Source: Planctomycetota bacterium (GTDB lineage Bacteria > Planctomycetota > Phycisphaerae > SM23-33). Taken from it: a DNA stretch of 64,000 bases. The stretch is from positions 23,381-87,380 of the forward strand of contig DAOVZK010000001.1 in NCBI GenBank assembly GCA_030635145.1, given 5' to 3'. Shown piece after piece: positions 2,932-63,984 of the stretch (the stretch's first letter is position 1; each line of letters opens with the position of its first letter). The position numbers and the translations under genes were made by a program. The notes below the pieces were generated by a model. That model had not been told where the DNA came from. It did not search any database and was given only the letters and a program-made list of their open reading frames with translations.

Positions 2932-3097
2932 TTTTTGCTCCGAATGGTGGGGCGTTGTTTTTTCGTGACCGGCACGGCCGATCCTGCAAATAAGTGTACG
3001 ATTTACGAATCCTGTTGTCGAGGGGCTGCTGAAAGTTTAGAATCATGTCCGGTGAAAACACGATAAAAAATTCGGGAACCTCGAAAGGGAGATCGAC

Positions 3098-3718
3098 ATG
3101 AAAAAACTCAAAGCATTTGTGCTAACGACTATTCTCGGTGGCGTTGTGGTGATTTTACCAGCCGCGATTTTACTGTTTGTGTTCAAGTGGATTTTCGGGA
3201 TGGTTATAAGCGGCGTTCGCCCGGCGGCGGAAACACTCGTGGACCAATCCGACTTCGGATTCGCGCTGGCGACAATTATCGTGCTGGGCGTGATCATCGG
3301 AGCATGTTTTCTGCTGGGGCTGCTGATCCGAACCAAGGTTGGCAAGCTGATGCATCAGCTAATCGAAAACGCCATTCTCAGCCGCTTCCCCGGATACTCG
3401 CTGCTGCGCGAAACCGTCGGGCAACTTCTCGGCGGAAAAAAGTCGCCGTTTTCCACAGTCGCCCTCGCGCAAATCTACGGCAACGATACGCTGGTGACAG
3501 CGTTTGTTACCGACGAGCACGAAAACGGAATGTTCACGGTTTTCGTTCCCACAGGCCCGAACCCCACGAGCGGAAACATTTACCATCTCGAGGCGCAGTA
3601 CGTGCATGTGGTGGACGTTTCGGTGGAATCGACAATGCGGTCTATCATCAGCTGCGGTGCCGGGTCGACAAAACTCGTCGAAGAATTCGGTAAGAAAAAT
3701 CCAAGCAGCAATAATTAG
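3098..3718 (+). CDS. DUF502-family membrane protein
   Basis: N-terminal transmembrane helix, then C-terminal VFVPTGPNPTSGNIYHLEAQYVHVVDVSVESTMRSIISCG typical of DUF502. GGGAG Shine-Dalgarno-like sequence 8 nt upstream of the ATG. Confidence 0.65.
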   Translation: MKKLKAFVLTTILGGVVVILPAAILLFVFKWIFGMVISGVRPAAETLVDQSDFGFALATIIVLGVIIGACFLLGLLIRTKVGKLMHQLIENAILSRFPGYSLLRETVGQLLGGKKSPFSTVALAQIYGNDTLVTAFVTDEHENGMFTVFVPTGPNPTSGNIYHLEAQYVHVVDVSVESTMRSIISCGAGSTKLVEEFGKKNPSSNN

Positions 3719-3726
3719 ACATTCGT

Positions 3727-3842
3727 CCGGTGCCGGGTCAAGACCCGGCCTTGAGAGAGAGCTGTAGGTCATGCAACTTGTTGCATGACACGGAATAATA
3801 GGAGCATCTTAATTGCCATGCAACAAGTTGCATGACCTACAG
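3727..3842. repeat. Nested inverted-repeat element between convergent genes (probable bidirectional terminator or REP-like palindromic unit)
   Basis: Hairpin GCCGGGTC-aa-GACCCGGC at about 3732-3749. Then a 27-28 nt arm CTGTAGGTCATGCAACTTGTTGCATGAC (3762-3789) whose reverse complement recurs at 3815-3842 with 1 mismatch after a 25-nt spacer. Each arm contains its own palindrome CATGCAAC..GTTGCATG. Confidence 0.5.
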
Positions 3843-3847
3843 AAGAT

Positions 3848-4762
3848 CTAGGCTTTTTGCCGGCGGAGCGTCTTGAAGGTGCTTATCGCAGGGCCCATGA
3901 GTATGTAAGCCAGCACCAGCACCGCCATCGCCTGATACTCGAACATAACCAGCAGCAATATCACGACCACCATTTTGACGAGATAGCTGAATGGTTTTCG
4001 GCCGCGAATATAGTGGTTGACCAAATGTGGATACGTAAACTGCGACACCATCAGCAATGCACAAACCAGCGTTAGGATCGGCAAGGTGACGCTCATTCCG
4101 ATCAGTAGTACCGATTCTGGAACCAAGGCCTGGTCTTTCATGAGGCTGGTAAACAGCAGCACCATTGATCCAAGCCCGGCGGCGGCGGCGGGTGTTGGCA
4201 GTCCGCGAAAATCCATATGTGCCGACTCGTCCTGCTCGGTTTCTACGTTGAACCGCGCCAATCGCAGCACAGCGCAGGCAACATAGATGGCGGCGATACA
4301 CCACACGACGCGCTCCACGGGAATGTGCCGCTCGAACTGCGTACGCAAAATGGAAATCGCCGCGTGCAGTGTCAGCATCGCCGGGGCTACGCCGAAACTT
4401 ACCATATCGCAAAGGCTGTCGAGTTGCGCACCGAAATCGCTGGTCGTTCGCGTCATGCGGGCCACTCGACCGTCGAGCATATCGAAAATCATTGCACCGA
4501 AAATCAGCAGCGACGCTATTTTTAGATTCTTGACGGCTTCGATGGCGGCGTCCGAGTCGCCGAAGGTTACCCCGAAGCCGCTTTTCGATGCGTAGTAGAT
4601 CGCGGCGAATCCCAGCAGCCCGTTTAGCAGCGTAAACGATGCCGGGAGGACCGCCGTGCTTCGCAGCCGCCGGCGCGGCAGCGTGGAGATTGGCTCGTCG
4701 TCGGTCTCTTCAAGTATGTCGTCAATTTCAGTGTTGTCGGTATTTTCGGTATAATCAGCCAT
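3848..4762 (-). CDS. pssA: CDP-alcohol phosphatidyltransferase, probable phosphatidylserine synthase
   Basis: CDP-OH phosphatidyltransferase motif DMLDGRVARMTRTTSDFGAQLDSLCD. Acidic N-terminus, C-terminal transmembrane helices. Start chosen at MADYTEN; the longer ORF start at 4825 would overlap psd by 71 nt. Sits directly downstream of psd in the same orientation. Confidence 0.7.
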   Translation of the reverse strand: MADYTENTDNTEIDDILEETDDEPISTLPRRRLRSTAVLPASFTLLNGLLGFAAIYYASKSGFGVTFGDSDAAIEAVKNLKIASLLIFGAMIFDMLDGRVARMTRTTSDFGAQLDSLCDMVSFGVAPAMLTLHAAISILRTQFERHIPVERVVWCIAAIYVACAVLRLARFNVETEQDESAHMDFRGLPTPAAAAGLGSMVLLFTSLMKDQALVPESVLLIGMSVTLPILTLVCALLMVSQFTYPHLVNHYIRGRKPFSYLVKMVVVILLLVMFEYQAMAVLVLAYILMGPAISTFKTLRRQKA

Positions 4763-5465
4763 CGCTGGGTTCCTCTTGTTTGCATTTTTTGCACTTGGCG
4801 AGGATCGTTTCACCGGCCCGCACATGATCGGAAATTGAAACGCAAATCTCGCCCGCCAATTCCTGCGGGAGCAGCAGTTCCAGACGCGACCCGAATTTTA
4901 TCATACCCATCCGCGACCCGCGAGTAACAGTTTGCCCTTTGTCCACGGCAGTGACGATGCGTCGCGCGACAAGCCCGGCGATCTGACGGAAAACGACCGG
5001 ATACTGCCTACCGTTATGCGTATGCGTCATGCGAATCGTCGCCGACTCGTTTCGCTCTGAGGCGTGGGAGTCGCGAACGTCCAGAAACGCACCGGCGCGA
5101 TGTGTGACATCTTCGATTACTCCGTCGCAGGGCACACGGTTGACGTGCACGTTGAACACGTTCATGAATATTCCGATTTGTACGCCGTTTTCACCGAGAA
5201 TGCTTTCAGCCCCGAGCGGGGTAATGTCTGCGACGACTCCGTCGGCGGGGCTTATGAACAAACCGTCGCCGGTTGGTGTTTGGCGGGTCGGGTCGCGGAA
5301 AAACCACAGCACCCAGCCCCACACGACCAGTGCGAGAAGGGATATGAATCCAAACGCCCAGCAAACAGTCGCCCCCAGCAATGCGCCAACCGCGCAAAGC
5401 CCGAGCAGTGCCATTGTCAAAATGCCAACTTCACGCAAACCGTGTTTTGTAATCATAGTCATCAC
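4755..5465 (-). CDS. psd: Phosphatidylserine decarboxylase-related protein (short archaeal-type Psd)
   Basis: 236 aa, N-terminal membrane anchor, and FGSRLE close to the C-terminus at the position of the Psd self-cleavage GS(T) motif. Overlaps the pssA start by about 8 nt, suggesting translational coupling. Confidence 0.65.
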   Translation of the reverse strand: MMTMITKHGLREVGILTMALLGLCAVGALLGATVCWAFGFISLLALVVWGWVLWFFRDPTRQTPTGDGLFISPADGVVADITPLGAESILGENGVQIGIFMNVFNVHVNRVPCDGVIEDVTHRAGAFLDVRDSHASERNESATIRMTHTHNGRQYPVVFRQIAGLVARRIVTAVDKGQTVTRGSRMGMIKFGSRLELLLPQELAGEICVSISDHVRAGETILAKCKKCKQEEPSDG

Positions 5466-5661
5466 CGCAAAACAATACTCTCACCGCGCGATATAGTCCA
5501 TCGAAAATTACGTAGGGCCAAGGCTCCCAACCACAAAACCTTCTGGGGGCGGCATCCTTTCCCTTGCCAAATCTGCGTATTAGCGTATACTTCAGCATAC
5601 GAATCCCCGCGGAATGACATTTTTCTGGTTTTTCTGATATGGCGGATATGGAGTAAATACT

Positions 5662-6141
5662 ATGAGACAATATCAAGGTCAGCTGACGACACCACAAGAG
5701 GCACGGTTTGCCATCGTTGTCGGGCGGTTTAATGAGTTTATCACCAGCAAGTTGCTCGGCGGAGCGGTTGATACGCTTGAGCGTCACGGCGTACAGCAGG
5801 AAGACATCGAAGTCGTCTGGTCTCCGGGCAGTTTCGAGATTCCGGTAATCGCCGGGCGTCTAGCCAAGAGCGAACAATACGACGCCGTCATCTGCCTCGG
5901 GGCAGTCATCCGCGGCGGAACCGACCACTACCAGTATGTCGCCTCGGAAGTCGCCAAGGGCATTTCCATCGTGTCGATCCAGACGGGCGTACCGTGTATC
6001 TTCGGCGTGCTGACGTGCGATACGGTCGAGCAGGCTGTCGACCGGGCCGGTGCCAAGAGCGGAAACAAAGGCTCCGACGCAGCGATGTCCGCACTCGAAA
6101 TGGTAAACCTTTTCAACCAACTTCCCGGTAGCAAAGCATAA
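5662..6141 (+). CDS. ribH: 6,7-dimethyl-8-ribityllumazine synthase
   Basis: [24 protein letters not shown]...[26 protein letters not shown] is a canonical RibH sequence. GGAG Shine-Dalgarno-like sequence upstream. Confidence 0.9.
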
Positions 6142-6142
6142 C

Positions 6143-6613
6143 GTGAATCAACACCGTTCAAGACGTTTGGCGTTGCAGGGTTTGTGCTGCATCGACTCGC
6201 AGGGCACGCAGGGCTGGGCGATGGTGGAGGAATTCATCCGCGACTCACACGAGCCTTCGACGGTAGTCGATCGCGCGTTGCAGATGCTGGCAGAATCGTT
6301 CGACGACCGCTCGGAATGCGATGAAGTTCTCAAACGTCATGCGCGGCGATGGGATATTCCGCGACTTGCGCTGGTAGATCGAAACATTTTGCGATTAGGC
6401 GTACACGAGCTGCGCGAGGGCAAAACTCCATTTAAAGTTGTCATCTCCGAGGCGCTTCGTCTGGCACGCGAATTTTCCTCAGCCGAAAGCCCCAGATTCG
6501 TAAACGGCATCCTCGACGCCGTCGCCCGCGAACTGGCACATCCAATCGAGGACAAAACCGACGCACCCACCGATGGCGAATCTGGTACGCCAACCGAACC
6601 CACCGACAAATAA
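6143..6613 (+). CDS. nusB: Transcription antitermination factor NusB
   Basis: N-terminal RRLALQGL and C-terminal PRFVNGILDAV NusB signatures. GTG start 1 nt after the ribH stop, the classic ribH-nusB arrangement. Confidence 0.85.
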   Translation: MNQHRSRRLALQGLCCIDSQGTQGWAMVEEFIRDSHEPSTVVDRALQMLAESFDDRSECDEVLKRHARRWDIPRLALVDRNILRLGVHELREGKTPFKVVISEALRLAREFSSAESPRFVNGILDAVARELAHPIEDKTDAPTDGESGTPTEPTDK

Positions 6614-51622: not shown

Positions 51623-54600
51623 TCAACTCACATTACGGAAGTTTCGCGGATCGTACCCTTTGCGACGCAAGCGTGGTTTGGGAGGCTCGGTTACAACCGG
51701 CGGGGCTTTTTCCAGCTCGACGGGCTGAGATATCTCACCGGCCGTCATCTTCGCTTTAGCGGTCTCATATCCCGCTTTGGTCACTGTTACGAGTACCTCG
51801 TCCTTTGGCGCACCGTCCCAGCGAAAAACGCCATCTGCACCAGTGCGAACTTTCGCAATACGTGGGCTAACCTTTTCATGCTGCAGCATTATCTCAACTG
51901 CAACATCGGGCAGCGGATTACCTTCATCATCGACAACCGTCCCTTGCAGAGTATGGGGTGGTTCAAGTTTTATCGCCAGCGGAGCATTTTCCTCGTCAAG
52001 CTGCATCTGCATTGTAACAGGAGCATAACCTTTCGCCCGCACAACCAACACCACTGACGCCTTCTTCGACCGCATCGAAAAATTCCCCTCGCCGTCAGTA
52101 ACAAATCTCCGCATAGTTACGCGCTTAGCTTTGCCGGGAAAATAAACATCGACAGTCGCATCACGAACCGGCCGACCAAGCCAGTTTTTAACCTGCCCGT
52201 TAAGAATAATCAGTTTCCGGCGAACCTTCAGCGGCGTTGCGTCCTGGCCCATATCATCTAATGATCGCCGTGCACGAAACAGAACGCCCGGGATCATATA
52301 GTCCGGGTGAAAAATCTGAAGCGACACCTTTTGATTCGTCTTCGGCAGCGGGGGGCTTTCCCATTTGCCTTGCTCGTTGGTCAGAACCTCTGCGGTCGTC
52401 CGCATCCATTGACTCATATCCCGCCTCTGCGGAATATTGATTTTCACCGTCGCACCGGCCAGCGGTTTGTCGTCGGCATCATGAACCACGCCGCGATAAA
52501 TCGCCTCCGGCTGCAACGCAACGCGCACATCTTGCTTATCGTCGGATGGCAGGTTGCGAACTTCGGTCGGCGTCATGCCGTCGGCCGTCACGCGAAGCAT
52601 ATGCTTGCCGGGTTTCGTGCGATAACCTCGCACGGTCGCTTTACCATCGGCGTTGGTTTTTACTGAGCGGGCCCAATTGCTGCGCCCGGCGTCGATAGTA
52701 ACTGTAGCACCGGGGATGGGGTCACCGGAGACATCTACGACCTGCACGATGCGCGGGGCATCGAGTTCGATTTTTCTCGACGTTGCGCCCGGGGCAGCCT
52801 CGAATCGAAGATCCAGCAATTCGAACTCAGCCTTGCCTTCCGGGGCGCTTTCCACACCCACAGCAAGGCCGATGAGATCGCCGATGGGCTTCATCGGCCG
52901 AAGATCACACGAAATCGTATGTACCTCACCATCAGGAATGATATCCTTCTGCGCGAACGGCATCACGCCCCCGTAGTCTGGGCCCGAGGTGTCGTCCAGA
53001 TATAATACGTATCCACTGCTCGTTGTATGCGTCCGTTTGGCGCGATAAGTCATGACGGCGATGGGATACTGCTGCGGATCGATTGGAATGTCGAAATACT
53101 TCACCCACACCTTGCGGGCAGCCGGGTTTACGACGAATCGGACGGAGTCTTTACCCTGCGCCATCGTAACAGCGTTCGTGTTGCGGGGGCCCGACCAGTG
53201 ACTCGACCACCACCTGATCGGCCAGCCGAACACCACCGCTTCGCTCGGGGAAACTTCGTCCGCGTTTCGGCCTTTATCAAGCGTCCGAGGTTTAATTCGC
53301 ATGGGCTCGTCCACCAGCGAATAGTTCGGCGCGGCAAATTGATACACCCGCGCGGAAGGTTTGGGAGCGGGCTTAGGAGTGGGGGGCGGCGACAAAGCAT
53401 AATTGTAGGACACAGTAAGGCTGCCACCCGGTTTGATAATCTTATCGACAAATATTTCTATACGCCCGTTTTTAATGCTGCGTGTCGCAGATTTCGGAAT
53501 GATTTTCAACAGTTTCGCCCCGGGCGGTAAGCGGTGAATTTCGATGCGGCGGGTTGGCTTACCGGTGGACGGGTAATGTTTCATTCTATAACGGAATTTT
53601 CCCGGGGCCGTCTGGCTGATCAGCTTGCTTATTGTTCCGCTGCTGGAATACAAAACAGGCTGGCCGGGTGCAACAGGTTTATTTAGCGTCACTTTGTATC
53701 TGAAACTTCGGCCGACATGCTTTGACGTAAACGCAAGCGGCTTGCCGGCGGCATCGGTCATTTTTTTTACATGTACGAAATCAGAATTCTGGAACCCAAT
53801 GGTTTTAAGCGTGCGGCCGTAGGTGTTGGTATACTGGATAATAGATTTGAAATTAATCGACCCGTCAGGCTGGATGTTATTTATCATGGTCTGCGTGTAA
53901 GGCACCGGCTTGGCGGGATCGGCCGCTTTTGCATCCGCCTTTTGCAGCAGTTTATAGCGAATCTTGACTCCTTGCGGATCTGAACTTGTCCCGAGAATCT
54001 GCAGGATTCCATAGCTGTCCTCGCGGGTTCTTATGAGGTACGTACCCGGCTGATTAGGTGCTTTGTGCGGAACCAATGGGGTAATTTTATTGGGCTCGGT
54101 CTGATTAAGGCCGAAGTTACTGGTTAGTTTGGCGGGGGTAGTCTCGCTCCACTTTTGATGCGGAACTGGCATCACCACGAGATCAAAACCAAGTCCAACA
54201 ATCACGCCCTTGTCTTTGACCACCGACAAATCAAGGCCGTTAGCTCGCACCCACCGGTGAGTTTCGCGATCGTTCTCGCCAAAGTCTTTTTTGAGTTTGA
54301 ACTTTCCAGTCTCAAGATCCAAGAGTACCGCATGCCGTTTCTTTGTATACGGTAACACACGCTCGACTACCGCACCGAAAGTAGCGTCTTTCGCCGTATT
54401 GATGGACTTGCCAGGCGCTTTTCGGTCCGGCCATTGCGGATACCCTTCAACCTTCTTCGCACTTACGTATTTACCGGCGGAAGTGAAGGTGAATATCTCG
54501 TTGCCGATCATTCGCTCCTTGTCCCAAATGCTGCACTTGTATTTGTAGCGAATCGAGTAATTCCCGTCAGCCAGCTTTTTGGGCGCGCCCCATTCGATGG

Positions 54601-57600
54601 TCTTGCGATTCTTGACGTCCCGATAATTCCGCGAAAAGAACTTCTCCACCCAACCGATGAGCTGCTTTTGTAGCTTTGCATCCTCGGCCGCAGGCTTGGG
54701 CTTGGGAACAGCGGGCGGTTTTGTTTCGGCCTTGCCCACCTTGATGATAACGCTTTTGATTTCTTCCCCTGATTTAACATCGAGGCCATCCTTCATGACA
54801 CTCTTGCCGTCGTAGATAATATCCAGCAGCTCGTGGTCTTTTTGTCGTGGAAAGAAGTTCAGTTTTGTTTTTCCGGGAGCAAGACCCTGCAGAAGAAACG
54901 TGTTTTTGGTGGGGAAAAGCATCCCAGCCTTACCGTAATCCCCTGTTCCCAAAACAAAACCAGTACCGTTACGGTCTCCGGCTACATCTTTCGGCTGGTG
55001 CTTGCTGTGAAATCCGGTCTGAACGAAACTGACACCCCACAAATCCTTATCTTGACTGTTTTTTAAATAAGCGCTTCCATAACTATTGGCTATCTCCCAA
55101 TCACTGCCATCTGCGTCGACAAATTTGCCTGAAATTGTAGCTCCGGGTTTTAGTTTCACGTCCAGCTGCATTTTCGGGGTTTTGCTATCGATATCGAAAG
55201 GTCTTCGAGTTCGGATAAACCCGCGATGCCCCGCATCGACCTGAACCACGAATTCGCCTTCACCCAGACCCTGGATTTTATAGTGCCCGGTTTTATCGGT
55301 GTAGGCGGTCGAAAAATCAAAAAGCAGATCGTGGGAGTGCACTACAACGAAGGCTTCGGGTATGGGCTGTCCGGTTTCATCCGTTACGATGCCCTCGATA
55401 ACAACTCCGCCTTCTTTTTTGAGCTTGATGTCGATATTCTCAACACTTCGTACTTTATCGTCAAAGGTAATCAGCTTTGCGTGTTTTCTGGAAAATGTTC
55501 CGGGGTAATAAATTGGCGGATATCCATCGCCCCGTTTTGCAACCGTTGAGTTAAGTGCCATCGCATAAACCGCCCGGCCGTCAAGCCCATCGATGAACCA
55601 CGAACCGTCGGTGGCATCTATGGTACTTTTTTTAATGGCCTGTACTTCGTAGCCATCACTATCTTTTTTTCTTACACATGCCCATACCGTAAAGTTGCTT
55701 ATGTCGGCCGGTATCTTGCCGTTTTCATCCAGAATTTTCCCGGAAATCCGAAAGGCCGGCTTCATCTTAATGAGAACATCTTTGCGTTGCTCACCTTCTT
55801 TAAGAGAAAATCGCGGAAACAGGCCATCCTTATCATCAGGATTATAGGCTGCGCCCTGATATCCGGGCGTACGAATCGTCCTCAACGAAAACGGCCCTGT
55901 GGGAATATTTTCTAATGCAAAACTTCCATCTTCGGCTGCATAAACAAATAGCGGCTCAAGTGTGACGGTGTAGAACAAATAAACTTTCGCCCCCGGTATC
56001 GGCTCGCCAGTCTCGGCCGAGACTACCTTACCGCGAATCGAACACTTACCCTTCGGCAGCGATGTGTTGTCGGCACCCTTGGTAACGCTAGCCGCTCCGC
56101 CGGTGGTTTTTTCGCCCGCATCCACAACGACTTTCACGTTCGTCTTATGGCCGAGCTGAAGCGAGACGTTTTTGAACTCGACCCATTCGTACGGCCGAGT
56201 CTGAAATTCAAAATGATCTATCTCGCTAAGAGGCAGGCTGAACTTGTGTGTGTGTATCAAAATATCAGATCCGCCACTACCCGTTGAACTAGACTGTACG
56301 ATATCACCAGATTTTATGACCGCGACAACCCTTGTTGCGGGTTTGGTTATCGTGCTGGCGAGATTTATAATTGTCGCACCATCCTGTTGCTGTGGTTGAG
56401 ATAAAATCGCAGATTGGTTGCCCAGTTTTTCCGAGTTTGACCCGGTAGTGCTACACTTGAATAAAGTCTCCCACTTACCAGTTGCTATACCATATCGAAC
56501 AGTGGTTGTTTTGGGGATCTTTTTCCATCCGGCCCCCAGGGCTCTAAGATTATAAATTGATCTACCGTCTTTATCCCTCGGGCCTCCAACATTAGTTGTC
56601 GAGGCCCCGGAGACTCGCCATCGATCACTAATGTTCTTGTGGCCGTCGACTTTCATCACTAATTCATACTGATATTTCTTCAACGGATTCTTCATTCCAA
56701 CACAAGGGGCTTTTTTCAGCACATTTCCGTTGGGATGCCACCACTGTTTGTTTTTCGAATGCAGTTTCGACACGCCCACCAGCTCGACAACCACCCCGCT
56801 GGGGAGTCTTACCTTGAAGCTGGGTTCGGACGCTTTTGATTTTTCCGGTTCTGCTTTCTCTTGCTTTGCAGTGGGAAGTTTGCTTGATATCTTCAGATTA
56901 TCAAAACGGATATCGTATTCGTATCCGAGTTTGGGAGTCTGGAATCCTACTTGCGCCTTGGAAATTCGGCCGACTGGCTTTTCAAGATTTAACGTATCTA
57001 CAAGAACGTCGTCAACGTAATAGTCTACCTGCGTCCTATTTTCACGCAGCCGCATTCGCATATTAACAAACTTGGTCTCTTCCGTACCTACGTCGGGGAA
57101 TCTACCCCGACCATTTTCTAACCACCATTTTACCTTTATCCACATAGTATGAACTTGATACCAGCCCTTGGATTTGCTGGATTCTAGCAACCCGAAAAAT
57201 GTTTTCTTCTGAGGTTTCCACTGATAAAGGATCATCGGCGGACCGGTCGGACCCTCGGGGTAGAACCCCAGATACACCAATCCATAATCCTGTCGTTTTG
57301 GAATTTTAAAATCGACCGAAAAGTCCATTTCTCCATCGCGGTCTTTTACAGTAACTTCCGCCTTTGCGCCACCCCATTTTGTATCTGTAGTTTTGCCCCA
57401 AATCCGTAATTCGCCGTCTTGAACACCAATTTTCATTCCCTTGTCCGGGCAAGACAGGGTTAATCCATCATCAACATCAAACGAATAGCAAACTTTCGCA
57501 TCTTTCTTGTCATCCTTCGCGGCGGGGGCTTCGGTTTTTTCGCTCTCTTCCATGGCGGCTAGGGCTGCGGCGGTGTGTTCGTCGATAACTTTTTTCTCCG

Positions 57601-58801
57601 CCTGTGCCATCGGCAGCAAGACGGCGGCGGCGAGCAGCATGGCAATCAGTCCCAGCGTGCCGAGTTTCGCCGATTTCGGTATCGGCCGAGTGAGGATATG
57701 CTTGATCCGCTCGGTAAGCGCGCTTTTCGATTCGACAACACCGATCAACCGTAAGCTCAGGGCCGGCCGGGCCAACGACAACGTCGCAACGCTCAGCAGC
57801 GTTTCGGGATATTCGTTAGCCTCTGTGCCCATGGCGACGAGAACGGCTTCGTCGACGGCCTGTTCGCGGACGCGGCGGATGACGGCGTTGGCGATCCACA
57901 GCAGCGGATTGTAAAAGTAAAAAATCTGCAGCATGGCCTGGATCATATTGACCCACAAGTCTCCACGTTTTATGTGTGCCAACTCGTGAACCAGCACGGC
58001 CTCGAGATGCCGCGGGTTAAGTTTATCGGGTAGGTAATTCGGAATGAGAATTACCGGCCGAAATAACCCACAAACCGCGGGGCTTGTGGCACTGGGGGAA
58101 AGTTTCAGTCTGATATTACGCTTTATGTTAATCCCCGGCCGATTTTTACATTTCTCCAGCAGGCCCGTGAGTTTGTCACCGGCATCCTTAGCTTGCTTGA
58201 TGAGTCCGCTAACGAATATCGATCGCTGAATGATAAGCAGCAGCATTCCCATCGCAACGACGACCCAAACTGCAAACACCACACCCTGCCACACAATGCA
58301 AGGGTCTTTGTTATCGGCAGAATCGGTGGCGGATGGCGCAGCAGCGATGACCGTCTCGGGCGCCGCTGGTGTTACGGGCGCAGCCGAAACCGGAGAGGCG
58401 TTCTGCAGCGACATAGGCGGCAAATCCGTCGGCTCAAACTCCGTGGCCAAACCCTCACGGCTCGACGCAATCATTCCTGCCGGGAGCTCCCATGTTTCCG
58501 TTTGCAGCGGCGCAGCTGGCTGCTCAACTACCGCGGGCTCAATTACAGGATTGAGAAAATTACCCCCGACCCAATATCCGATTCCGGTTGGAGCAGAGAG
58601 TGTGACGGGTAATACCAGTTTCAGCAGCAGGAGCATCCAGAGGCAGTAGCGAATGATAGCTCGTACTTTTTTGCGAAGCAGGGTGTCCAGCAGCAGCAGA
58701 ACCGCGATCAATACGCACGACTGCAACAGCATCGGAAATGCAAATCGCATAAACCAAAATCCTGCAGTGTTCAATGATTCGACAATGGCGTTCATGTCCA
58801 T
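51623..58801 (-). CDS. Giant (2392 aa) BlaR1/MecR1-like M56-peptidase signal transducer with ~2000-aa extracytoplasmic repeat region
   Basis: N-terminal 4-TM region containing the M56 zinc motif VLVHELAHIKRGD. After that, many CarboxypepD_reg-like units (IRGKVVSAETGEPIPGAKVYL, IEGIVTDETGQPIPEAFVVV, VQVVDVSGDPIPGATVTI, LQGTVVDDEGNPLPDVAVEI and others). Starts 30 nt downstream of blaI. Confidence 0.8.
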   Translation of the reverse strand: MDMNAIVESLNTAGFWFMRFAFPMLLQSCVLIAVLLLLDTLLRKKVRAIIRYCLWMLLLLKLVLPVTLSAPTGIGYWVGGNFLNPVIEPAVVEQPAAPLQTETWELPAGMIASSREGLATEFEPTDLPPMSLQNASPVSAAPVTPAAPETVIAAAPSATDSADNKDPCIVWQGVVFAVWVVVAMGMLLLIIQRSIFVSGLIKQAKDAGDKLTGLLEKCKNRPGINIKRNIRLKLSPSATSPAVCGLFRPVILIPNYLPDKLNPRHLEAVLVHELAHIKRGDLWVNMIQAMLQIFYFYNPLLWIANAVIRRVREQAVDEAVLVAMGTEANEYPETLLSVATLSLARPALSLRLIGVVESKSALTERIKHILTRPIPKSAKLGTLGLIAMLLAAAVLLPMAQAEKKVIDEHTAAALAAMEESEKTEAPAAKDDKKDAKVCYSFDVDDGLTLSCPDKGMKIGVQDGELRIWGKTTDTKWGGAKAEVTVKDRDGEMDFSVDFKIPKRQDYGLVYLGFYPEGPTGPPMILYQWKPQKKTFFGLLESSKSKGWYQVHTMWIKVKWWLENGRGRFPDVGTEETKFVNMRMRLRENRTQVDYYVDDVLVDTLNLEKPVGRISKAQVGFQTPKLGYEYDIRFDNLKISSKLPTAKQEKAEPEKSKASEPSFKVRLPSGVVVELVGVSKLHSKNKQWWHPNGNVLKKAPCVGMKNPLKKYQYELVMKVDGHKNISDRWRVSGASTTNVGGPRDKDGRSIYNLRALGAGWKKIPKTTTVRYGIATGKWETLFKCSTTGSNSEKLGNQSAILSQPQQQDGATIINLASTITKPATRVVAVIKSGDIVQSSSTGSGGSDILIHTHKFSLPLSEIDHFEFQTRPYEWVEFKNVSLQLGHKTNVKVVVDAGEKTTGGAASVTKGADNTSLPKGKCSIRGKVVSAETGEPIPGAKVYLFYTVTLEPLFVYAAEDGSFALENIPTGPFSLRTIRTPGYQGAAYNPDDKDGLFPRFSLKEGEQRKDVLIKMKPAFRISGKILDENGKIPADISNFTVWACVRKKDSDGYEVQAIKKSTIDATDGSWFIDGLDGRAVYAMALNSTVAKRGDGYPPIYYPGTFSRKHAKLITFDDKVRSVENIDIKLKKEGGVVIEGIVTDETGQPIPEAFVVVHSHDLLFDFSTAYTDKTGHYKIQGLGEGEFVVQVDAGHRGFIRTRRPFDIDSKTPKMQLDVKLKPGATISGKFVDADGSDWEIANSYGSAYLKNSQDKDLWGVSFVQTGFHSKHQPKDVAGDRNGTGFVLGTGDYGKAGMLFPTKNTFLLQGLAPGKTKLNFFPRQKDHELLDIIYDGKSVMKDGLDVKSGEEIKSVIIKVGKAETKPPAVPKPKPAAEDAKLQKQLIGWVEKFFSRNYRDVKNRKTIEWGAPKKLADGNYSIRYKYKCSIWDKERMIGNEIFTFTSAGKYVSAKKVEGYPQWPDRKAPGKSINTAKDATFGAVVERVLPYTKKRHAVLLDLETGKFKLKKDFGENDRETHRWVRANGLDLSVVKDKGVIVGLGFDLVVMPVPHQKWSETTPAKLTSNFGLNQTEPNKITPLVPHKAPNQPGTYLIRTREDSYGILQILGTSSDPQGVKIRYKLLQKADAKAADPAKPVPYTQTMINNIQPDGSINFKSIIQYTNTYGRTLKTIGFQNSDFVHVKKMTDAAGKPLAFTSKHVGRSFRYKVTLNKPVAPGQPVLYSSSGTISKLISQTAPGKFRYRMKHYPSTGKPTRRIEIHRLPPGAKLLKIIPKSATRSIKNGRIEIFVDKIIKPGGSLTVSYNYALSPPPTPKPAPKPSARVYQFAAPNYSLVDEPMRIKPRTLDKGRNADEVSPSEAVVFGWPIRWWSSHWSGPRNTNAVTMAQGKDSVRFVVNPAARKVWVKYFDIPIDPQQYPIAVMTYRAKRTHTTSSGYVLYLDDTSGPDYGGVMPFAQKDIIPDGEVHTISCDLRPMKPIGDLIGLAVGVESAPEGKAEFELLDLRFEAAPGATSRKIELDAPRIVQVVDVSGDPIPGATVTIDAGRSNWARSVKTNADGKATVRGYRTKPGKHMLRVTADGMTPTEVRNLPSDDKQDVRVALQPEAIYRGVVHDADDKPLAGATVKINIPQRRDMSQWMRTTAEVLTNEQGKWESPPLPKTNQKVSLQIFHPDYMIPGVLFRARRSLDDMGQDATPLKVRRKLIILNGQVKNWLGRPVRDATVDVYFPGKAKRVTMRRFVTDGEGNFSMRSKKASVVLVVRAKGYAPVTMQMQLDEENAPLAIKLEPPHTLQGTVVDDEGNPLPDVAVEIMLQHEKVSPRIAKVRTGADGVFRWDGAPKDEVLVTVTKAGYETAKAKMTAGEISQPVELEKAPPVVTEPPKPRLRRKGYDPRNFRNVS

Positions 58802-58831
58802 GTTAAAATCTCCCCGAAATTGTCGGTAAGG

Positions 58832-59233
58832 CTATTGGCTTTTTTTCTCGGCCGAGCGCTTACGCTTTTTCTGAATGAGGGCTTCGAGTTCGCTGAGTTC
58901 GGCGGCGGTAAAATTATTCCCGTCCAGCAAAAACTGCATCATCGGCGTCATCGCACCGTTAAATGCACGCTTGACGGTACTCATAACCTCGCATTTCTGC
59001 GCCTGCCGCGGTGTAATAGACGAACGATACATGATGAGGTTACGCAGTCTTTCTGTTTTCAGCAGACTTTTTGTAACCATCCGATCCATCATGGTTTTTA
59101 CGGTGCTGTACGACCATTTCTTGCTTTTGACCAAAGCCTCCTGAACAGTCGGGGCAGCACAGGGTTCGTGCTCCCAAACCGCACGGATGATAGCCCACTC
59201 CCCTTCGGTTAATTGATAGCCTACCTTCGCCAT
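58832..59233 (-). CDS. blaI: BlaI/MecI/CopY-family transcriptional repressor
   Basis: Winged-helix N-terminus (EWAIIRAVWEHEPCAAPTVQEAL...WSYSTVKTMMDRMVTKSLL) and a C-terminal dimerisation helix. 133 aa. Confidence 0.85.
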   Translation of the reverse strand: MAKVGYQLTEGEWAIIRAVWEHEPCAAPTVQEALVKSKKWSYSTVKTMMDRMVTKSLLKTERLRNLIMYRSSITPRQAQKCEVMSTVKRAFNGAMTPMMQFLLDGNNFTAAELSELEALIQKKRKRSAEKKSQ

Positions 59234-59267: not shown

Positions 59268-59285
59268 TCTCTACAATTGTAGAGA
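59268..59285. promoter_or_regulatory. Candidate BlaI operator: perfect 18-bp palindrome TCTCTACAATTGTAGAGA
   Basis: Contains TACA-AT-TGTA, the same dyad architecture as Staphylococcus/Bacillus bla/mec operators (TACAnnTGTA). Lies 35 nt upstream of the blaI start. Confidence 0.55.
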
Positions 59286-59460: not shown

Positions 59461-59497
59461 TTGACACCTAGGCTGCCTATGTATACAATACATAGGC
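59461..59497. promoter_or_regulatory. Candidate padR promoter with overlapping operator: TTGACA, 16 nt spacer, TACAAT; palindrome GCCTATGTAT-aca-ATACATAGGC
   Basis: 10-bp perfect arms with an ATGT...ACAT core, as in known PadR operators. The palindrome spans the -10 element. Lies about 55-90 nt upstream of padR. Confidence 0.5.
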
Positions 59498-59550
59498 AAG
59501 CAAGGTATACTGCTGGCTTAGTAGCCGATTTTGATACAGGAGTATGAGCG

Positions 59551-59892
59551 ATGGATTTTTCGAATGATTTGATTCGCGGGAGCGTGGTTCCGATCGTATT
59601 GAGCCTGCTCAAAGACAAACCAATGTACGGTTACGAGATGGTCAAGGTCGTCAATGCCCGCACTGGGGGTAAGCTGGAATGGAAAGAGGGCACGCTGTAC
59701 CCTGCCTTGCATCGGCTGGCCGGAACGGGGCTGATTTCGGCAAAGTGGGTGGCGGCACCTAAGGGCGAAGCTCCAGGCCGAAAGCGCAAGTACTACTCGA
59801 TAACGCGAAAAGGGCTGCGCGAACTGGCGCGCCGCACGGAAGAGTGGGCACAGTTCAGCCTCGCCGTCGACACGATGCTGTCGCTGGGCTAA
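59551..59892 (+). CDS. PadR-family transcriptional regulator
   Basis: VVPIVLSLLKDKPMYGYEMVKVV...GTLYPALHRL is a canonical PadR winged helix. 113 aa. Confidence 0.85.
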   Translation: MDFSNDLIRGSVVPIVLSLLKDKPMYGYEMVKVVNARTGGKLEWKEGTLYPALHRLAGTGLISAKWVAAPKGEAPGRKRKYYSITRKGLRELARRTEEWAQFSLAVDTMLSLG

Positions 59893-59976
59893 CCTCGCAG
59901 GTAACGAAGTCTGTCTTTGGTATGTAGTGCAAGAACCGTGCAGCTGAGCCTGAACCGGTAATAAAAAATCGGAGCA

Positions 59977-62160
59977 TTGAACATGAAAGATTACGACAAA
60001 CTTATCGCACGTTTAACGGATCGATTATCAGTAGACCCCGAGCTGCAAATGGACGTCGCTCAGGAGTTGCGGGCGCATCTTGACGACTCGGCCGCGGAGT
60101 TTCGCGAGGCGGGGCTAACCGAAGAACAGGCCGAAACCCAAGCAGCAAAAGCTCTCGGTGACCCGGACGAACTTTCCGGACAATTATGGTCGGCCAATCG
60201 CACGCGCCTGCGAATTCGAGGACTGCTTCGCTGGACGGCTCGCATTACGCTAATCCCAGCGGCTATCGGTGTAATCGTCTGCTTGTTGCTGTCGATGGGT
60301 GTTCGTGAGAATATGTTTACGATTCCCGAATCATGGGCAGACGAATTAACCGAGGAGCAGATGTACATTCTTCGCGGTGACCCCGCGGCCGAAACACCAT
60401 TGGAGCAAGCAAAGTCGATTACCGACCGTTGGCCGAAAAATCCTGTTTACTTTGGGGATTATGCTGTGTGGGCAATCGCAAAAGAGAAACTTCGTGGCCA
60501 GCTTTCAGACGCGAAGCTGAAACGATTGCAGGAACTGCTCTCCAAAGGTGAAAAGCTCGATCCAGACAACGCCTTCTATAATTTCATGCGGGCAGCGGCC
60601 CTGATAAACTCCACCTGCGAATTGAAGGATGATGAATTGCTCACGTATTTAGTGATCAACAGCCGCGGCGAGGTACAGCAAAAACCTTGCTACACTGTAG
60701 CCATTGAAAATGAAAAAATATTTCGGCAGGGATTGGCTGAATTGCGGGCGGGCCTGAAGAAACCCCGCCTCGCCATACCCAGTATCGAAATGCTGAAAAT
60801 CCGAGAAGCCATCATCCCAAAACCTCGCAACGTAACAGATATCCTTCGGCGAACTGCGATTGAAGTTTCGGTACTTTTACCTTCACTAAATGACTACAGA
60901 AATCTCAACAAAGCGGTGCTGGGTTATGCTTTGGCAGAAGCACGAAAGGGAAATTCCGGCGAGGCTTTGCAATTAGTGCAATATCTGGAGCAGTTCGCAA
61001 ATCACACCGGGGCAAACAGCTCATGCTTGATTGAACTCCTGGTTGCGCATGCAAATTACAATCTCGTAATGGGGCATGCGGCGCAGATGTGCAAAGTGCT
61101 TGGGGAGGACGATCTGGGGCAGGAGTTTCAAGCCCGATGTAAGGAAAGCGGGGCGTTTTTCAATGAACTTCGCAAACGACCTCGTGGAGATGCAAGCGAA
61201 TTGCGAGGGGCGGGGATGTATTGGGGCCTTTTCATGCCAGGCCTTCCCGGTTACACGATGAATTTTGAACCGATGCGAACAGCGGAGCAGTTCTGGATAA
61301 ACGAGTTTGGATTGTTGGCACTTTTGATGGGGCTAACGTTACTGGCTTTGCTGATGGGCGGTGTTACGCTATTGGAATTCTTGCGCCGGAGCGACAGACC
61401 CGTGCTGATGTTTGTCGGGGGGGATCGTATGGCGAAGATTTGCTTTTATGGAATTGTGCTGCCTATCGGAATTTACGCGGCATACGTGTATTTTTTCACC
61501 ATCGGACCCGATGTCTACGGTTTGAACGTCACAGTCGGGCGCGTTATTCTGGAGTTGATCTTTGTCGGTGCAATAATCTGCGTAACGCTGGTGGGGATGA
61601 GCTATTCCGCCATTCGCCGCCGGGCCGTCGAGCTGGGCCTAACCGTTCCAGAGCCACTGACCCTTCGCCGCCGCTGGATAATGTGGCCGATGGCGGGCTT
61701 ACTAACACTCGGAGTACTGGCATACCTGACTGCTTGGTGGACGGGGCATATACAACCGAGCAACAGGCCCTGCTGGAGTCCCTATTTCAATGATCTGGTA
61801 GGCGGCATCTCAAACTCACGATTCCCATCACCGGAGGCGATTATGATAGGCGCAATCATTTTCATCTTTCTATTGATCTGGGGGGTTCGGGAGCTTGTTG
61901 GTTTATTCAAAGCTCCGTACCGCCAGTTTCGACGCAGCTTGTACCGCAACATTGTCCCGATCCTCGCAGCTGCGGTTATCGTGGTGGGAATAATCTGCGG
62001 ATTCGTGCTGAACCGGGCGGAAACGGCGGCGGCAAAGCGCGTTACCGGTAATGCGATGATGTCGTTTGCAACAGAGCTTGAGCGGTGCGACTACAGAGAA
62101 ATTCGCGACCGATTCGCAGCGCGGCAGGCAGAACAAAAGCCGATAGGCTCGGATGAGTGA
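59977..62160 (+). CDS. PadR-associated HAAS-domain (DUF1700-like) polytopic membrane protein, 727 aa
   Basis: The N-terminal ~70 aa (DYDKLIARLTDRLSVDPELQMDVAQELRAHLDDSAAEFREAGLTEEQAETQAAKALGDPDEL) match the HAAS/DUF1700 pattern found next to PadR. Then one TM, a ~330-aa soluble region, and at least 6 further TM helices. Confidence 0.6.
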   Translation: MNMKDYDKLIARLTDRLSVDPELQMDVAQELRAHLDDSAAEFREAGLTEEQAETQAAKALGDPDELSGQLWSANRTRLRIRGLLRWTARITLIPAAIGVIVCLLLSMGVRENMFTIPESWADELTEEQMYILRGDPAAETPLEQAKSITDRWPKNPVYFGDYAVWAIAKEKLRGQLSDAKLKRLQELLSKGEKLDPDNAFYNFMRAAALINSTCELKDDELLTYLVINSRGEVQQKPCYTVAIENEKIFRQGLAELRAGLKKPRLAIPSIEMLKIREAIIPKPRNVTDILRRTAIEVSVLLPSLNDYRNLNKAVLGYALAEARKGNSGEALQLVQYLEQFANHTGANSSCLIELLVAHANYNLVMGHAAQMCKVLGEDDLGQEFQARCKESGAFFNELRKRPRGDASELRGAGMYWGLFMPGLPGYTMNFEPMRTAEQFWINEFGLLALLMGLTLLALLMGGVTLLEFLRRSDRPVLMFVGGDRMAKICFYGIVLPIGIYAAYVYFFTIGPDVYGLNVTVGRVILELIFVGAIICVTLVGMSYSAIRRRAVELGLTVPEPLTLRRRWIMWPMAGLLTLGVLAYLTAWWTGHIQPSNRPCWSPYFNDLVGGISNSRFPSPEAIMIGAIIFIFLLIWGVRELVGLFKAPYRQFRRSLYRNIVPILAAAVIVVGIICGFVLNRAETAAAKRVTGNAMMSFATELERCDYREIRDRFAARQAEQKPIGSDE

Positions 62161-62205: not shown

Positions 62206-62278
62206 TACGCCCGAGAGGAGTCGAACCTCTAACCTCTTGCTCCGGAGGCAAGCGATCTATCCATTGATCTACGGGCGC
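62206..62278 (-). tRNA. tRNA-Arg (anticodon CCG)
   Basis: 73-nt cloverleaf folded by hand. Acceptor GCGCCCG/CGGGCGU. D-stem GAUC/GAUC. Anticodon stem CUUGC/GCAAG with loop CUCCGGA. T-arm AGAGG-UUCGACU-CCUCU. Discriminator A. CCA is not encoded. Confidence 0.85.
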
Positions 62279-62421: not shown

Positions 62422-63984
62422 CTAATGCATGATCATCATGACAAAATATACTGCACCCCCATATCCAACCGGCAACATAGAGCCCAGCGGGACAGCGCCC
62501 CTGGAACTAAGTAGCATTCCGCCTTCGTCCGGGATAAACACAATCATCTCGGGGCCAATGAGGCTGACGATTTTCTGTGTAGACGGAACCGACCTCAGGA
62601 ATTCGCCGGGGCCACCACGCCCGCCATTCTGCGTTGCCTGGACAAGCATCGGCCAAACCAGTTTGGTCAATGCGGGAAGATCCATCACGAAAACACCCGG
62701 GCCCTTGGGAAGCTTCTTGCCTAACTTGGCAGCCTTACTGTCAGGGGCAAATCCACTCATATTATCCTTAGCGGCGTCGATCCCTGCCTTTAATGCACCA
62801 TCGGAAAATGCGATAATCATGCGATCCTTCATCACCGCGTAAAATAAATCGTCATCCATCTGGTGGATAACAACTTTGCGATAGGTGTTGGCGGCGACGG
62901 CGGATGGTTTGGTGGTTGCGGCCGGTTTGGTCGTAGCCGAATCCGCGGTGGATTCTTCATCCGAGTCGTCGGCAGCAACCAACTCTTCCATCCCGCCGAA
63001 CTCGCACAACGCTTGCATTGCTTTCGCGGCACGGGCGGGGTCTTTTACCTCAAACACCATCCCGACGGGAGCCCCGCCGCCCATCATTGCTGTCTGGATA
63101 TCCGTAACATACCCACCACCGTTAGGCCCGAGAGATGCGGCAAGTTCGTTGAACAGCTTCGTAAACTTTTGAACCTTTTCCGACTCGGCTTTCGGTGCAG
63201 CTGGTTTTGTTTCATCTTCTTCAACGGCAACTTCTTCGGCTCCAGCCATTTCCTCTTCAGCCTCAATCACCTCCACCTCGTCGCTTTCGCCGGAGTCCTC
63301 CAGTTTGAATATGCCGGTAACGATTTTGGCGATTGCCTTGGGTTCCAGCTGGCCGGCGAACATTAAATTCGACTGCGACGGCATCAGCGCCAGCCCCGCC
63401 TTGAAATCTCCACCGATCTTTAAGCTTCGCATCAGCCCAACCTTCACGCCGGGCGTATCGATATAAATTTGGTTGGCAAAAGCATTGTCCATATATCCAA
63501 TGTACCCCCCGACACTGCGAAGCGTCTCTAACCCCAGCACCTTCATGTGCTTTTCCTGCAGGAACGTCTCGCCGCTATCCTTATCCTTTGTCATTTTCGC
63601 AATCGCGTCGAGATCCACAAACCAGCGCATTGCCCAATCTTTCATCGCAGTTTTTTCGTAAGCCTTCAACAACCCCGGATTGGCATTTTTCTTGTCGGGG
63701 GCGGACATCTTTTTGCTGATTTGGTCGGCGGCATGGATTGAGGTCGCAGCGTAAACCATGGGATGCCGTTGAGTAATCATGAACAAGTCTGTTTTTTCCA
63801 GCAACGCCTTGAGTTCAGCAGGATCTTCGGGCAGCTCTTCTGCATACCCTGCAACACCTGTCCATGTCACGCTTCCGGAGATGTAGGTAAAGCTTTTTAC
63901 TTCGTCAGATTTTTCCATCAGCACTTTGAGAGAATCGAGAAAGTCTTTGCGATACTTGGCGCCAGGGACAATGATGATGCCCAT
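62422..63984 (-). CDS. Hypothetical protein with acidic and Ala/Thr/Pro-rich linkers and a C-terminal hydrophobic anchor
   Basis: 520-aa ORF with no domain recognisable by eye. Contains EVEVIEAEEEMAGAEEVAVEEDE and TTKPAATTKPSAVAA low-complexity stretches. C-terminus AVYFVMMIM. The start codon is 16 nt from the window edge. Confidence 0.4.
   Translation of the reverse strand: MGIIIVPGAKYRKDFLDSLKVLMEKSDEVKSFTYISGSVTWTGVAGYAEELPEDPAELKALLEKTDLFMITQRHPMVYAATSIHAADQISKKMSAPDKKNANPGLLKAYEKTAMKDWAMRWFVDLDAIAKMTKDKDSGETFLQEKHMKVLGLETLRSVGGYIGYMDNAFANQIYIDTPGVKVGLMRSLKIGGDFKAGLALMPSQSNLMFAGQLEPKAIAKIVTGIFKLEDSGESDEVEVIEAEEEMAGAEEVAVEEDETKPAAPKAESEKVQKFTKLFNELAASLGPNGGGYVTDIQTAMMGGGAPVGMVFEVKDPARAAKAMQALCEFGGMEELVAADDSDEESTADSATTKPAATTKPSAVAANTYRKVVIHQMDDDLFYAVMKDRMIIAFSDGALKAGIDAAKDNMSGFAPDSKAAKLGKKLPKGPGVFVMDLPALTKLVWPMLVQATQNGGRGGPGEFLRSVPSTQKIVSLIGPEMIVFIPDEGGMLLSSRGAVPLGSMLPVGYGGAVYFVMMIMH

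Follow-up and report, generated by a model that had tools for sequence, protein, structure and literature searches.

How a small cytoplasmic repressor could be informed of events at or beyond the membrane is the question raised by a two-gene operon in a 64,000-nucleotide stretch of DNA from a bacterium of the Phycisphaerae, phylum Planctomycetota (assembly GCA_030635145.1, contig DAOVZK010000001.1, positions 23,381 to 87,380 of the forward strand), to which we refer as the window. The operon, at window positions 59461 to 62160 on the + strand, encodes a PadR repressor and a large polytopic membrane protein that we call the sensor. The HAAS-PadR dyad was defined computationally (mSystems 2024) and proposed as an alternative to two-component systems; HAAS consists of three consecutive helices, the third kinked at a GxP motif, and its gene always lies beside that of a standalone PadR-like winged helix-turn-helix (wHTH) protein (PMC11237479). 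Such pairs have been proposed on comparative grounds to be widespread, and biochemically almost nothing has been shown. Using comparisons across related loci, profile searches and structure prediction, we arrive with modest confidence at the view that padR and the sensor gene form an autoregulated HAAS-PadR operon, in which PadR would repress its own operon and the HAAS domain would relay a membrane or periplasmic signal.

padR and the sensor gene form a constant pair

As the initial annotation had proposed for the window, a PadR and a HAAS-bearing polytopic protein are encoded as a gene pair: in all 23 distinct loci, padR adjoins the sensor gene. A 4-nt overlap occurs in three of these loci (L001, L003, and L006); in most of the other homologous loci the genes are only a few nt apart, with distances of 0 to 8 nt in L002, L005, L023, and L024. 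padR comes first in 22 loci, and in the remaining one (L004, positions 2100 to 6272) the order is sensor-sensor-padR. The tandem sensor paralogues of L004 are only 37% identical overall, yet 74 of their first 80 aligned residues are identical, and the codons of their HAAS segments differ by 13 synonymous versus 6 nonsynonymous changes. Near-identical HAAS segments would be expected if both paralogues dock onto one shared PadR.

A conserved operator of two tandem dyads overlaps the promoter

The regulatory region of the operon contains the following features.

59461 to 59466, + strand: -35 hexamer TTGACA of the padR operon promoter (promoter scan; 22 of the 23 aligned loci have a TTG-type -35 at this position)
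59484 to 59489, + strand: -10 hexamer TACAAT (promoter scan; all aligned loci have a TATAAT-like hexamer where O1 meets O2)
59464 to 59484, + strand: predicted operator dyad O1, ACACCTAGGC-T-GCCTATGTAT, which occupies the -35/-10 spacer (23-locus alignment, 84% mean column identity)
59488 to 59508, + strand: predicted operator dyad O2, ATACATAGGC-A-AGCAAGGTAT, which spans the -10 and the probable start of transcription (81% mean column identity, 22 loci)
59475 to 59497, + strand: perfect palindrome GCCTATGTAT-aca-ATACATAGGC, made of the right arm of O1 and the left arm of O2 (read off the sequence)

The two promoter hexamers are as annotated initially, with a spacer of 17 nt rather than the 16 nt given there; they match the consensus at 11 of 12 positions and constitute the best site in the region. 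By our own estimate, a match of this quality is expected about once per 64 kb, and the window holds four distinct perfect inverted repeats with 10-nt arms, versus about 0.9 expected. Since comparable repeats and promoter matches are expected by chance, the evidence from a single window is weak. We hold the feature to be real because the promoter/operator block is conserved across independent loci.

The operator alignment comprises the 23 distinct loci, that is, the 22 with padR first and L004, which is the most divergent. Where measured, the sensors of the padR-first loci are 36 to 71% identical, and that of L004 is 24% identical. A 45-bp block is complete in the 22 padR-first loci, with a mean column identity of 81 to 84% versus 41% in the flanks. 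It is composed of four half-sites (consensus ATAC[A/C]T[A/C/T]GGC) that alternate in orientation and form two tandem 21-bp dyads; in the window they occupy 59464 to 59473, 59475 to 59484, 59488 to 59497, and 59499 to 59508. The spacing within a dyad is invariant in all 23 loci; 3 nt separate O1 from O2 in 18 loci, versus 1 nt in four others, namely L008, L009, L023, and L024. Where the gap has its usual 3 nt, successive half-site cores follow at regular 12-bp intervals, which makes a cooperative array of two dimers plausible. The outer half-sites are conserved as much as the inner ones, positions C17 and G21 being invariant. In L023, all four half-sites have shifted jointly to a CCTCGCG type, as fits sites read by one protein. 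L004 carries only an O1-type dyad, ATACATCG-CCTGT-CGATGTAT, perfect over 8 + 8 nt and lacking a second unit; it lies between TTGCAA and TATAAT, in the -35/-10 spacer of the operon's first gene, padR being the last gene there.

This conservation indicates purifying selection on the operator. The latter covers the -35/-10 spacer, the -10 hexamer and the likely start of transcription, O2 extending from the -10 to about +12. When a 34-nt degenerate operator pattern was run against a metagenome collection, it matched eight loci, in each case (8/8) directly upstream of a padR homologue. No further operator copies were found in the 64-kb window or in approximately 190 kb of flanking DNA from the other loci.

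The central palindrome is perfect across the -10, as the initial annotation had stated. Its 10 + 10 nt extend to arms of 11 nt, and to arms of 19 nt at 84% complementarity; in the closest relative, L025, it is imperfect. The same annotation had described it as a textbook ATGT/ACAT operator. The overlap of a dyad with the -10 stands, while the central spacer is N7 where 8 to 10 nt have been reported (PMC3506622), and the palindrome is better described as the junction of two 21-bp dyads. We therefore regard the 21-bp dyads as the probable PadR dimer sites, and the palindrome as probably their junction and not a dimer site, because of the invariant internal spacing, the single dyad of L004, and the conservation of the outer half-sites.

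A role of the dyads as an RNA hairpin or attenuator was rejected, because transcription probably starts within O2 (near 59496) and would leave part of the dyads out of the transcript. Downstream of O2 and ahead of the Shine-Dalgarno sequence, the padR leader does contain a terminator-like hairpin (59514 to 59527), formed by TGGCTTAGTAGCCG with a T-run after it. It is probably fortuitous, because it is absent from the close relative L025.

The same two-dyad operator is also found in L018 (424 to 831, - strand), ahead of a PadR that is 44% identical to that of the window. The next gene in L018 encodes a different HAAS/perm_prefix_1 membrane protein, which beyond its N terminus has no detectable relation to the family of the window's sensor. 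Thus, the operator grammar reaches beyond this sensor family.

A small PadR precedes a sensor of probably 725 residues

Between the operator and the sensor gene lie the following features.

59538 to 59542, + strand: Shine-Dalgarno sequence AGGAG of padR, 8 nt before the ATG (read off the sequence)
59551 to 59892, + strand: padR, encoding a small (PadR-s2 type) winged-helix repressor of 113 amino acids (list of open reading frames [ORFs]; Pfam PadR match)
59893 to 59982, + strand: intergenic spacer lacking a terminator or promoter (promoter/terminator scan, RNA folding, comparison with L025)
59971 to 59974, + strand: ribosome-binding site GGAG of the sensor gene, within the spacer (the ribosome-binding site and start region is conserved in L025)

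The 113-residue PadR gene of the initial annotation is present, and its product matches Pfam PadR (PF03551) over residues 16 to 93 with 76.4 bits (cutoff, 27). Its best NCBIfam match is TIGR03433 (padR_acidobact), at 84.2 bits versus a cutoff of 101.8; judged by this score, the protein is a relative and not a member of that family. The best solved relatives, aligned over residues 5 to 107, are small PadRs of 108 to 131 residues (LmrR, PDB ID 3f8b; 1xma; and 5dym). The protein also has the PadR-s2 format, with approximately 110 residues and a single C-terminal helix after the wHTH. Across the sensor-family loci, the PadRs are 51 to 87% identical to the window copy. The recognition-helix motif is EGTLYP in 25 of 26 locus identifiers and EGSLYP in L015, and a tryptophan in the C-terminal helix is likewise kept in 25 of 26, missing only in L004. 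A correspondence between PadR residues and operator variants was rejected, since changes in helix α2 (from NART to NERT or NQRS) show no simple relation to the half-site types.

The sensor ORF ends at 62160 on the + strand. The ORF list places its start at a TTG at 59977, which gives the 727 residues and the 84-nt gap after padR of the initial annotation; these figures match the listed ORF, and the likelier start is the ATG at 59983, giving 725 residues. The ATG is preferred because an identical deposited protein (P0001, [quoted passage not shown]) has 725 residues, because the homologues all align beginning at the methionine of this ATG, and because conservation of the spacer is confined to the ribosome-binding site and start. 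Indeed, compared with L025, a relative with 67% identity, the sole conserved segment of the spacer is GGAGCATTGAACATG, which contains GGAG-N-ATTGAACATG. A site scan of 59893 to 59982 detected no terminator or internal promoter, and no stable RNA structure was found there (fold z-score, 0.48).

The sensor joins a HAAS domain to an unannotated membrane module

A model of the sensor was built with AlphaFold on a 29-sequence alignment (predicted local distance difference test score, 85.9; predicted template modeling score, 0.78), and its topology was derived from hydropathy and the positive-inside rule together with this model. The predicted regions are as follows (TM, transmembrane).

59983 to 60237, + strand: cytoplasmic HAAS/permease prefix 1 domain and basic juxtamembrane helix, residues 1 to 85 (hidden Markov models [HMMs], alignment, AlphaFold, conservation)
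60238 to 60294, + strand: TM1, residues 86 to 104 (AlphaFold, hydropathy and positive-inside rule)
60295 to 61299, + strand: predicted periplasmic TPR-like domain, residues 105 to 439 (alignment, AlphaFold, positive-inside rule, Foldseek)
61300 to 62010, + strand: six-TM bundle, residues 440 to 676 (alignment, AlphaFold, positive-inside rule)
62011 to 62160, + strand: C-terminal tail, residues 677 to 725 (49 residues), predicted to lie outside, and stop codon (AlphaFold, topology)

The N terminus scores 45.4 bits (cutoff, 30) against NCBIfam NF038403 ("permease prefix domain 1," perm_prefix_1), a model that five further relatives pass with 38 to 55 bits. Against Pfam HAAS (PF22564) it reaches 26.1 bits (E value, 1e-5; cutoff, 27), and 24 of 29 relatives match this model at an E value of ≤0.01. 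In the AlphaFold model, the HAAS helices span residues 19 to 42, 47 to 57, and 61 to 104, with G59-D-P61 between the last two. G59 is invariant, P61 is present in 21 of the 29 aligned sequences, and on the model this motif corresponds to the GxP kink described for HAAS (PMC11237479). The last HAAS helix continues into TM1 as a single helix (residues 61 to 104), and the juxtamembrane stretch is basic, with six arginines in RTRLRIRGLLRWTAR. Residues 1 to 85 thus show the testable defining features of a HAAS/permease prefix 1 domain, the Pfam HAAS score being marginally below threshold, and we assign them to it on these sequence grounds. Of the HAAS/DUF1700 label in the initial annotation, only the first half survives: a DUF1700 identity is ruled out, since the sensor has no match to the Pfam DUF1700 HMM (PF08006) at an E value of ≤1.

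The HAAS region is also the most conserved part of the protein. Mean identity is 63% over residues 1 to 85, versus 37% in the periplasmic domain and 41% in the six-TM bundle, and 13 of the 16 invariant columns fall within residues 1 to 92, E28, H32, N72, R75, and R79 being among the invariant residues. This conservation, together with the near-identical HAAS segments of the L004 paralogues that share one PadR, points to HAAS as the probable PadR-facing module.

Beyond HAAS, the layout read initially (a TM helix, a soluble region of about 330 residues, and at least six C-terminal TM helices) is borne out as TM1, 335 residues, and exactly six helices, which makes seven TM helices in all, with the N terminus predicted inside. 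The soluble region is nearly all helical in the model, with one β-hairpin (residues 212 to 241), and contains the motifs WPxNPVY and DPDNAFYNF, which resemble TPR turns. Its best Foldseek matches in the PDB are TPR proteins, and they are weak (E values, 0.056 to 0.7; TM-scores, 0.1 to 0.3), as are the designed TPRs returned by a PDB profile search (E value, about 0.05); the domain has no Pfam TPR match. The six-TM bundle, the loops of which obey the positive-inside rule, contains an invariant P494, a near-invariant E524 within TM4, and a conserved cytoplasmic loop (R545/R547/E550).

Family scans, Foldseek and the PDB profile search returned no Pfam, NCBIfam or PDB match for the sensor body of approximately 640 residues. 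An identity as an FtsX/ADOP permease is ruled out, the sensor having no match to the FtsX TM or MacB-PCD models of Pfam and NCBIfam at an E value of ≤1. A word-indexed search returned 32 relatives, all full-length, the named ones all from Phycisphaerae or Planctomycetota. When the complete set of 1.84 billion cluster representatives (50% identity) was searched with a profile, at least 584 matched with an E value of ≤1e-30; the top 150 matches reach 389 bits or more and, apart from some fragments, are for the most part full-length (650 to 880 residues). By these searches, the sensor family is sizeable and unannotated.

A model for the operon and its alternatives

We propose that a sigma-70-type promoter (TTGACA-17-TACAAT) would drive a bicistronic padR-sensor transcript, and that PadR, most probably as two dimers, would occupy the 45-bp operator and block RNA polymerase, keeping the operon near silent. 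A signal could be sensed by the 335-residue periplasmic TPR-like domain, by the six-TM bundle, or by both. It would then travel through the continuous TM1-HAAS helix to the groove at the GxP motif, which would bind or release PadR, and repression would be lifted. That the signal is membrane stress or a small molecule, as was suggested at the outset, is pure conjecture. Since no other operator copies were seen near any locus, the membrane protein may be an effector too; it may even combine the roles of sensor and main output, PadR then supplying negative feedback. In a bolder version, which we advance very tentatively, the 725-residue proteins would be a Planctomycetota-specific class of receptors, each at once sensor and sole output, that titrate PadR off a cooperative dimer-of-dimers operator. 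If true, the system would amount to a self-contained "sense and respond" module in the membrane, with a new PadR operator grammar in the tandem 21-bp dyad.

Several observations weigh against the autoregulated HAAS-PadR operon that we favor. PadR-s2 proteins such as LmrR bind ligands directly, and the conserved tryptophan of the window's PadR is presumably the counterpart of the drug-binding W96 of LmrR. The Pfam HAAS score falls 0.9 bits short of the gathering cutoff, and DUF1700 is not matched. The padR-sensor spacer is 90 nt in the window and 180 nt in L025, while the genes overlap elsewhere. Within the operator, complementarity is slightly higher for the central pair (0.80) than for O1 and O2 (0.70 and 0.73), and the polarity is canonical at the center (ATGT-N7-ACAT) and reversed in O1 and O2 (ACAT-N9-ATGT), so that a single central dimer is conceivable. 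Finally, the operator scan covered the 64-kb window and approximately 190 kb of flanks, leaving room for a distal regulon.

The points on ligand binding lead to the main alternative, in which PadR itself would sense a small molecule, like LmrR and the phenolic-acid PadR. The membrane protein would then be no more than an effector under PadR control, acting in resistance, transport or envelope maintenance, and its N-terminal domain would have a structural function and not serve as a signaling link. The ligand-binding small PadRs among the best solved relatives and the tryptophan kept in all locus identifiers except L004 fit this idea. So does the resemblance of the membrane protein to an output when no further operator copies are found, and the Listeria operons of this type have the membrane proteins themselves as effectors (PMC6624303). 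We nevertheless consider it unlikely, as it leaves unexplained why HAAS is the most conserved segment of the sensor, why it is nearly identical in the otherwise divergent L004 paralogues, and why HAAS is constantly paired with a standalone PadR (PMC11237479; 23/23 loci). The operator itself could be read differently, with one PadR dimer on the central ATGTAT-N3-ATACAT across the -10 and the outer half-sites incidental or auxiliary. In favor of this reading, complementarity peaks at the central pair, which forms a perfect palindrome in the window and shows the canonical ATGT...ACAT polarity (PMC3506622). However, its N7 spacer departs from the reported 8 to 10 nt, its arms move from 3 nt to 1 nt apart in four loci against a constant spacing inside each dyad, and L004 has a perfect 8 + 8 dyad of the O1 type and no second unit. 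With outer half-sites as conserved as the inner ones and C17 and G21 invariant, a single central dimer seems distinctly improbable. We give still less credence to a membrane protein acting purely as a sensor, with PadR running a distal regulon and local autoregulation as its feedback arm only. The limits of the scan (the window and about 10-kb flanks of the other loci) leave space for such a regulon, and L018 shows the operator type in use beyond the 725-residue family, with a 44%-identical PadR and another HAAS protein. Against it stand the lack of extra operators in the window and the flanks, the position of all eight metagenome matches upstream of padR, and the homologous Listeria systems, which mainly regulate their own operons (PMC6624303).

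Relation to known systems

The autoregulated HAAS-PadR operon proposed here resembles the published dyads in its small standalone PadR and in a cytoplasmic three-helix HAAS with GxP fused to a multi-TM module (PMC11237479). Fusions of HAAS to FtsX-like domains, FtsW/RodA-like domains, and "various uncharacterized 6TM, 4TM and 2TM domains" are a recurrent theme there (PMC11237479). The suggestion of a new receptor architecture, set against HAAS proteins with one or two TM helices, was therefore overstated, although the body of approximately 640 residues is undescribed. That module is unlike PspC, LiaI-LiaF-TM, Toastrack, FtsX/MacB-PCD, FtsW/RodA, and VanZ, the named records of window-type sensors all come from Planctomycetota, and the neighborhood contains no PSP or Lia genes. 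HAAS fused to a multi-TM module is thus already known, and the window system is a new example of a predicted signaling system. What is new is the sensor body as an undescribed family and the tandem-dyad operator grammar, which was previously unreported.

The closest experimental parallels are LstR-Lmo0421 and LltR-Lmo0600/0601 of Listeria monocytogenes, in which a PadR is likewise associated with HAAS/DUF1700 membrane proteins and the inducer is presumed to act on the envelope (PMC6624303). LstR and LltR chiefly repress their own operons, about 150-fold (PMC6624303). The LstR operon encodes Lmo0421, an FtsW/RodA homologue that is listed as a HAAS fusion (PMC6624303, PMC11237479), and the LltR operon encodes the DUF1700 membrane protein Lmo0600 (PMC6624303). 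These systems differ from that of the window in belonging to Firmicutes and in having unrelated membrane modules (an FtsW/RodA homologue; a DUF1700 multi-TM protein with DUF4097). The lstR operon also requires sigma-C, and no tandem-dyad operator has been described for either system.

LmrR of Lactococcus lactis and other PadR-s2 proteins are autoregulatory repressors of approximately 110 residues with ATGT/ACAT operators overlapping their promoters (PMC3506622, PMC5428041), in which the inverted motifs lie 8 to 10 nt apart (PMC3506622). LmrR differs from the window's PadR in sensing drugs directly and in lacking a HAAS partner. Its 8- to 10-nt spacer contrasts with the window operator, in which four half-sites give ATGT-N7-ACAT at the center and ACAT-N9-ATGT in each 21-bp dyad.

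BlaR1-BlaI offers a further analogy: it combines a membrane sensor with a repressor that is likewise a small winged-helix protein and has its binding dyad over its own promoter. Signaling by BlaR1 depends on proteolysis by its M56 zinc-peptidase domain, whereas the window sensor has no peptidase motif and would be expected to act by binding and not by cleavage. The acidobacterial PadRs of TIGR03433, which from the model descriptions we take to be paired with ADOP/FtsX-type permeases bearing NF038403, share with the window system a related prefix domain (45.4 bits) and PadR type. They differ in that the window's PadR falls below the TIGR03433 cutoff and its sensor lacks FtsX and MacB-PCD.

The family offers an unusually clean system for testing HAAS-PadR signaling: the operon has just two genes and a promoter close to consensus, the half-sites of its 45-bp operator are defined by 23 independent loci, and in a confident structural model the HAAS helix runs straight into TM1. 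The comparison also flags a sizeable membrane family (at least 584 clusters at 50% identity), the 640-residue body of which has no Pfam, NCBIfam or PDB counterpart. NCBI names some of the relatives "permease prefix domain 1-containing protein"; for proteins labeled in this way or as "hypothetical," the analysis provides a start codon, a topology, and an operator.

Neighboring genes

A divergent BlaI-like repressor (133 residues; Penicillinase_R, 85.8 bits) and a BlaR1-type gene are encoded on the - strand at 51623 to 59233. The BlaR1-type product is a giant M56 peptidase of 2392 residues with several CarboxypepD_reg and Ig-like domains. The sequence TCTCTACAATTGTAGAGA (59268 to 59285), which lies upstream of blaI, is a perfect 18-bp palindrome that overlaps a -10-like TACAAT on the minus strand; its TACA-N2-TGTA core is presumably of the BlaI/MecI type. 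The 317-bp intergenic region thus contains two separate predicted repressor/operator pairs. In L001, where the sensor is 42% identical to that of the window, a BlaR1 (Peptidase_M56) and BlaI pair likewise lies just upstream of the padR-sensor operon (2267 to 4764). A functional link to BlaI/BlaR1 was rejected, the pair being absent from L002, L003, L005, L006, L023, L024, and L025; its adjacency in the window and L001 is probably inherited synteny.

Downstream of the operon, L001 (8194 to 12386) and L003 (6393 to 10181) have in common a block that is absent from the window, encoding an AIRC-domain protein, a carbohydrate kinase, and a Peripla_BP_2/FecCD/ABC_tran transporter. The window has in this direction a 520-residue ORF on the - strand (62422 to 63984), with an acidic low-complexity middle and no Pfam or NCBIfam match at an E value of ≤1. 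Between this ORF and the operon, 46 nt past the sensor stop codon, lies a convergent tRNA-Arg gene (anticodon CCG; 62206 to 62278, - strand), the only tRNA gene of the window.

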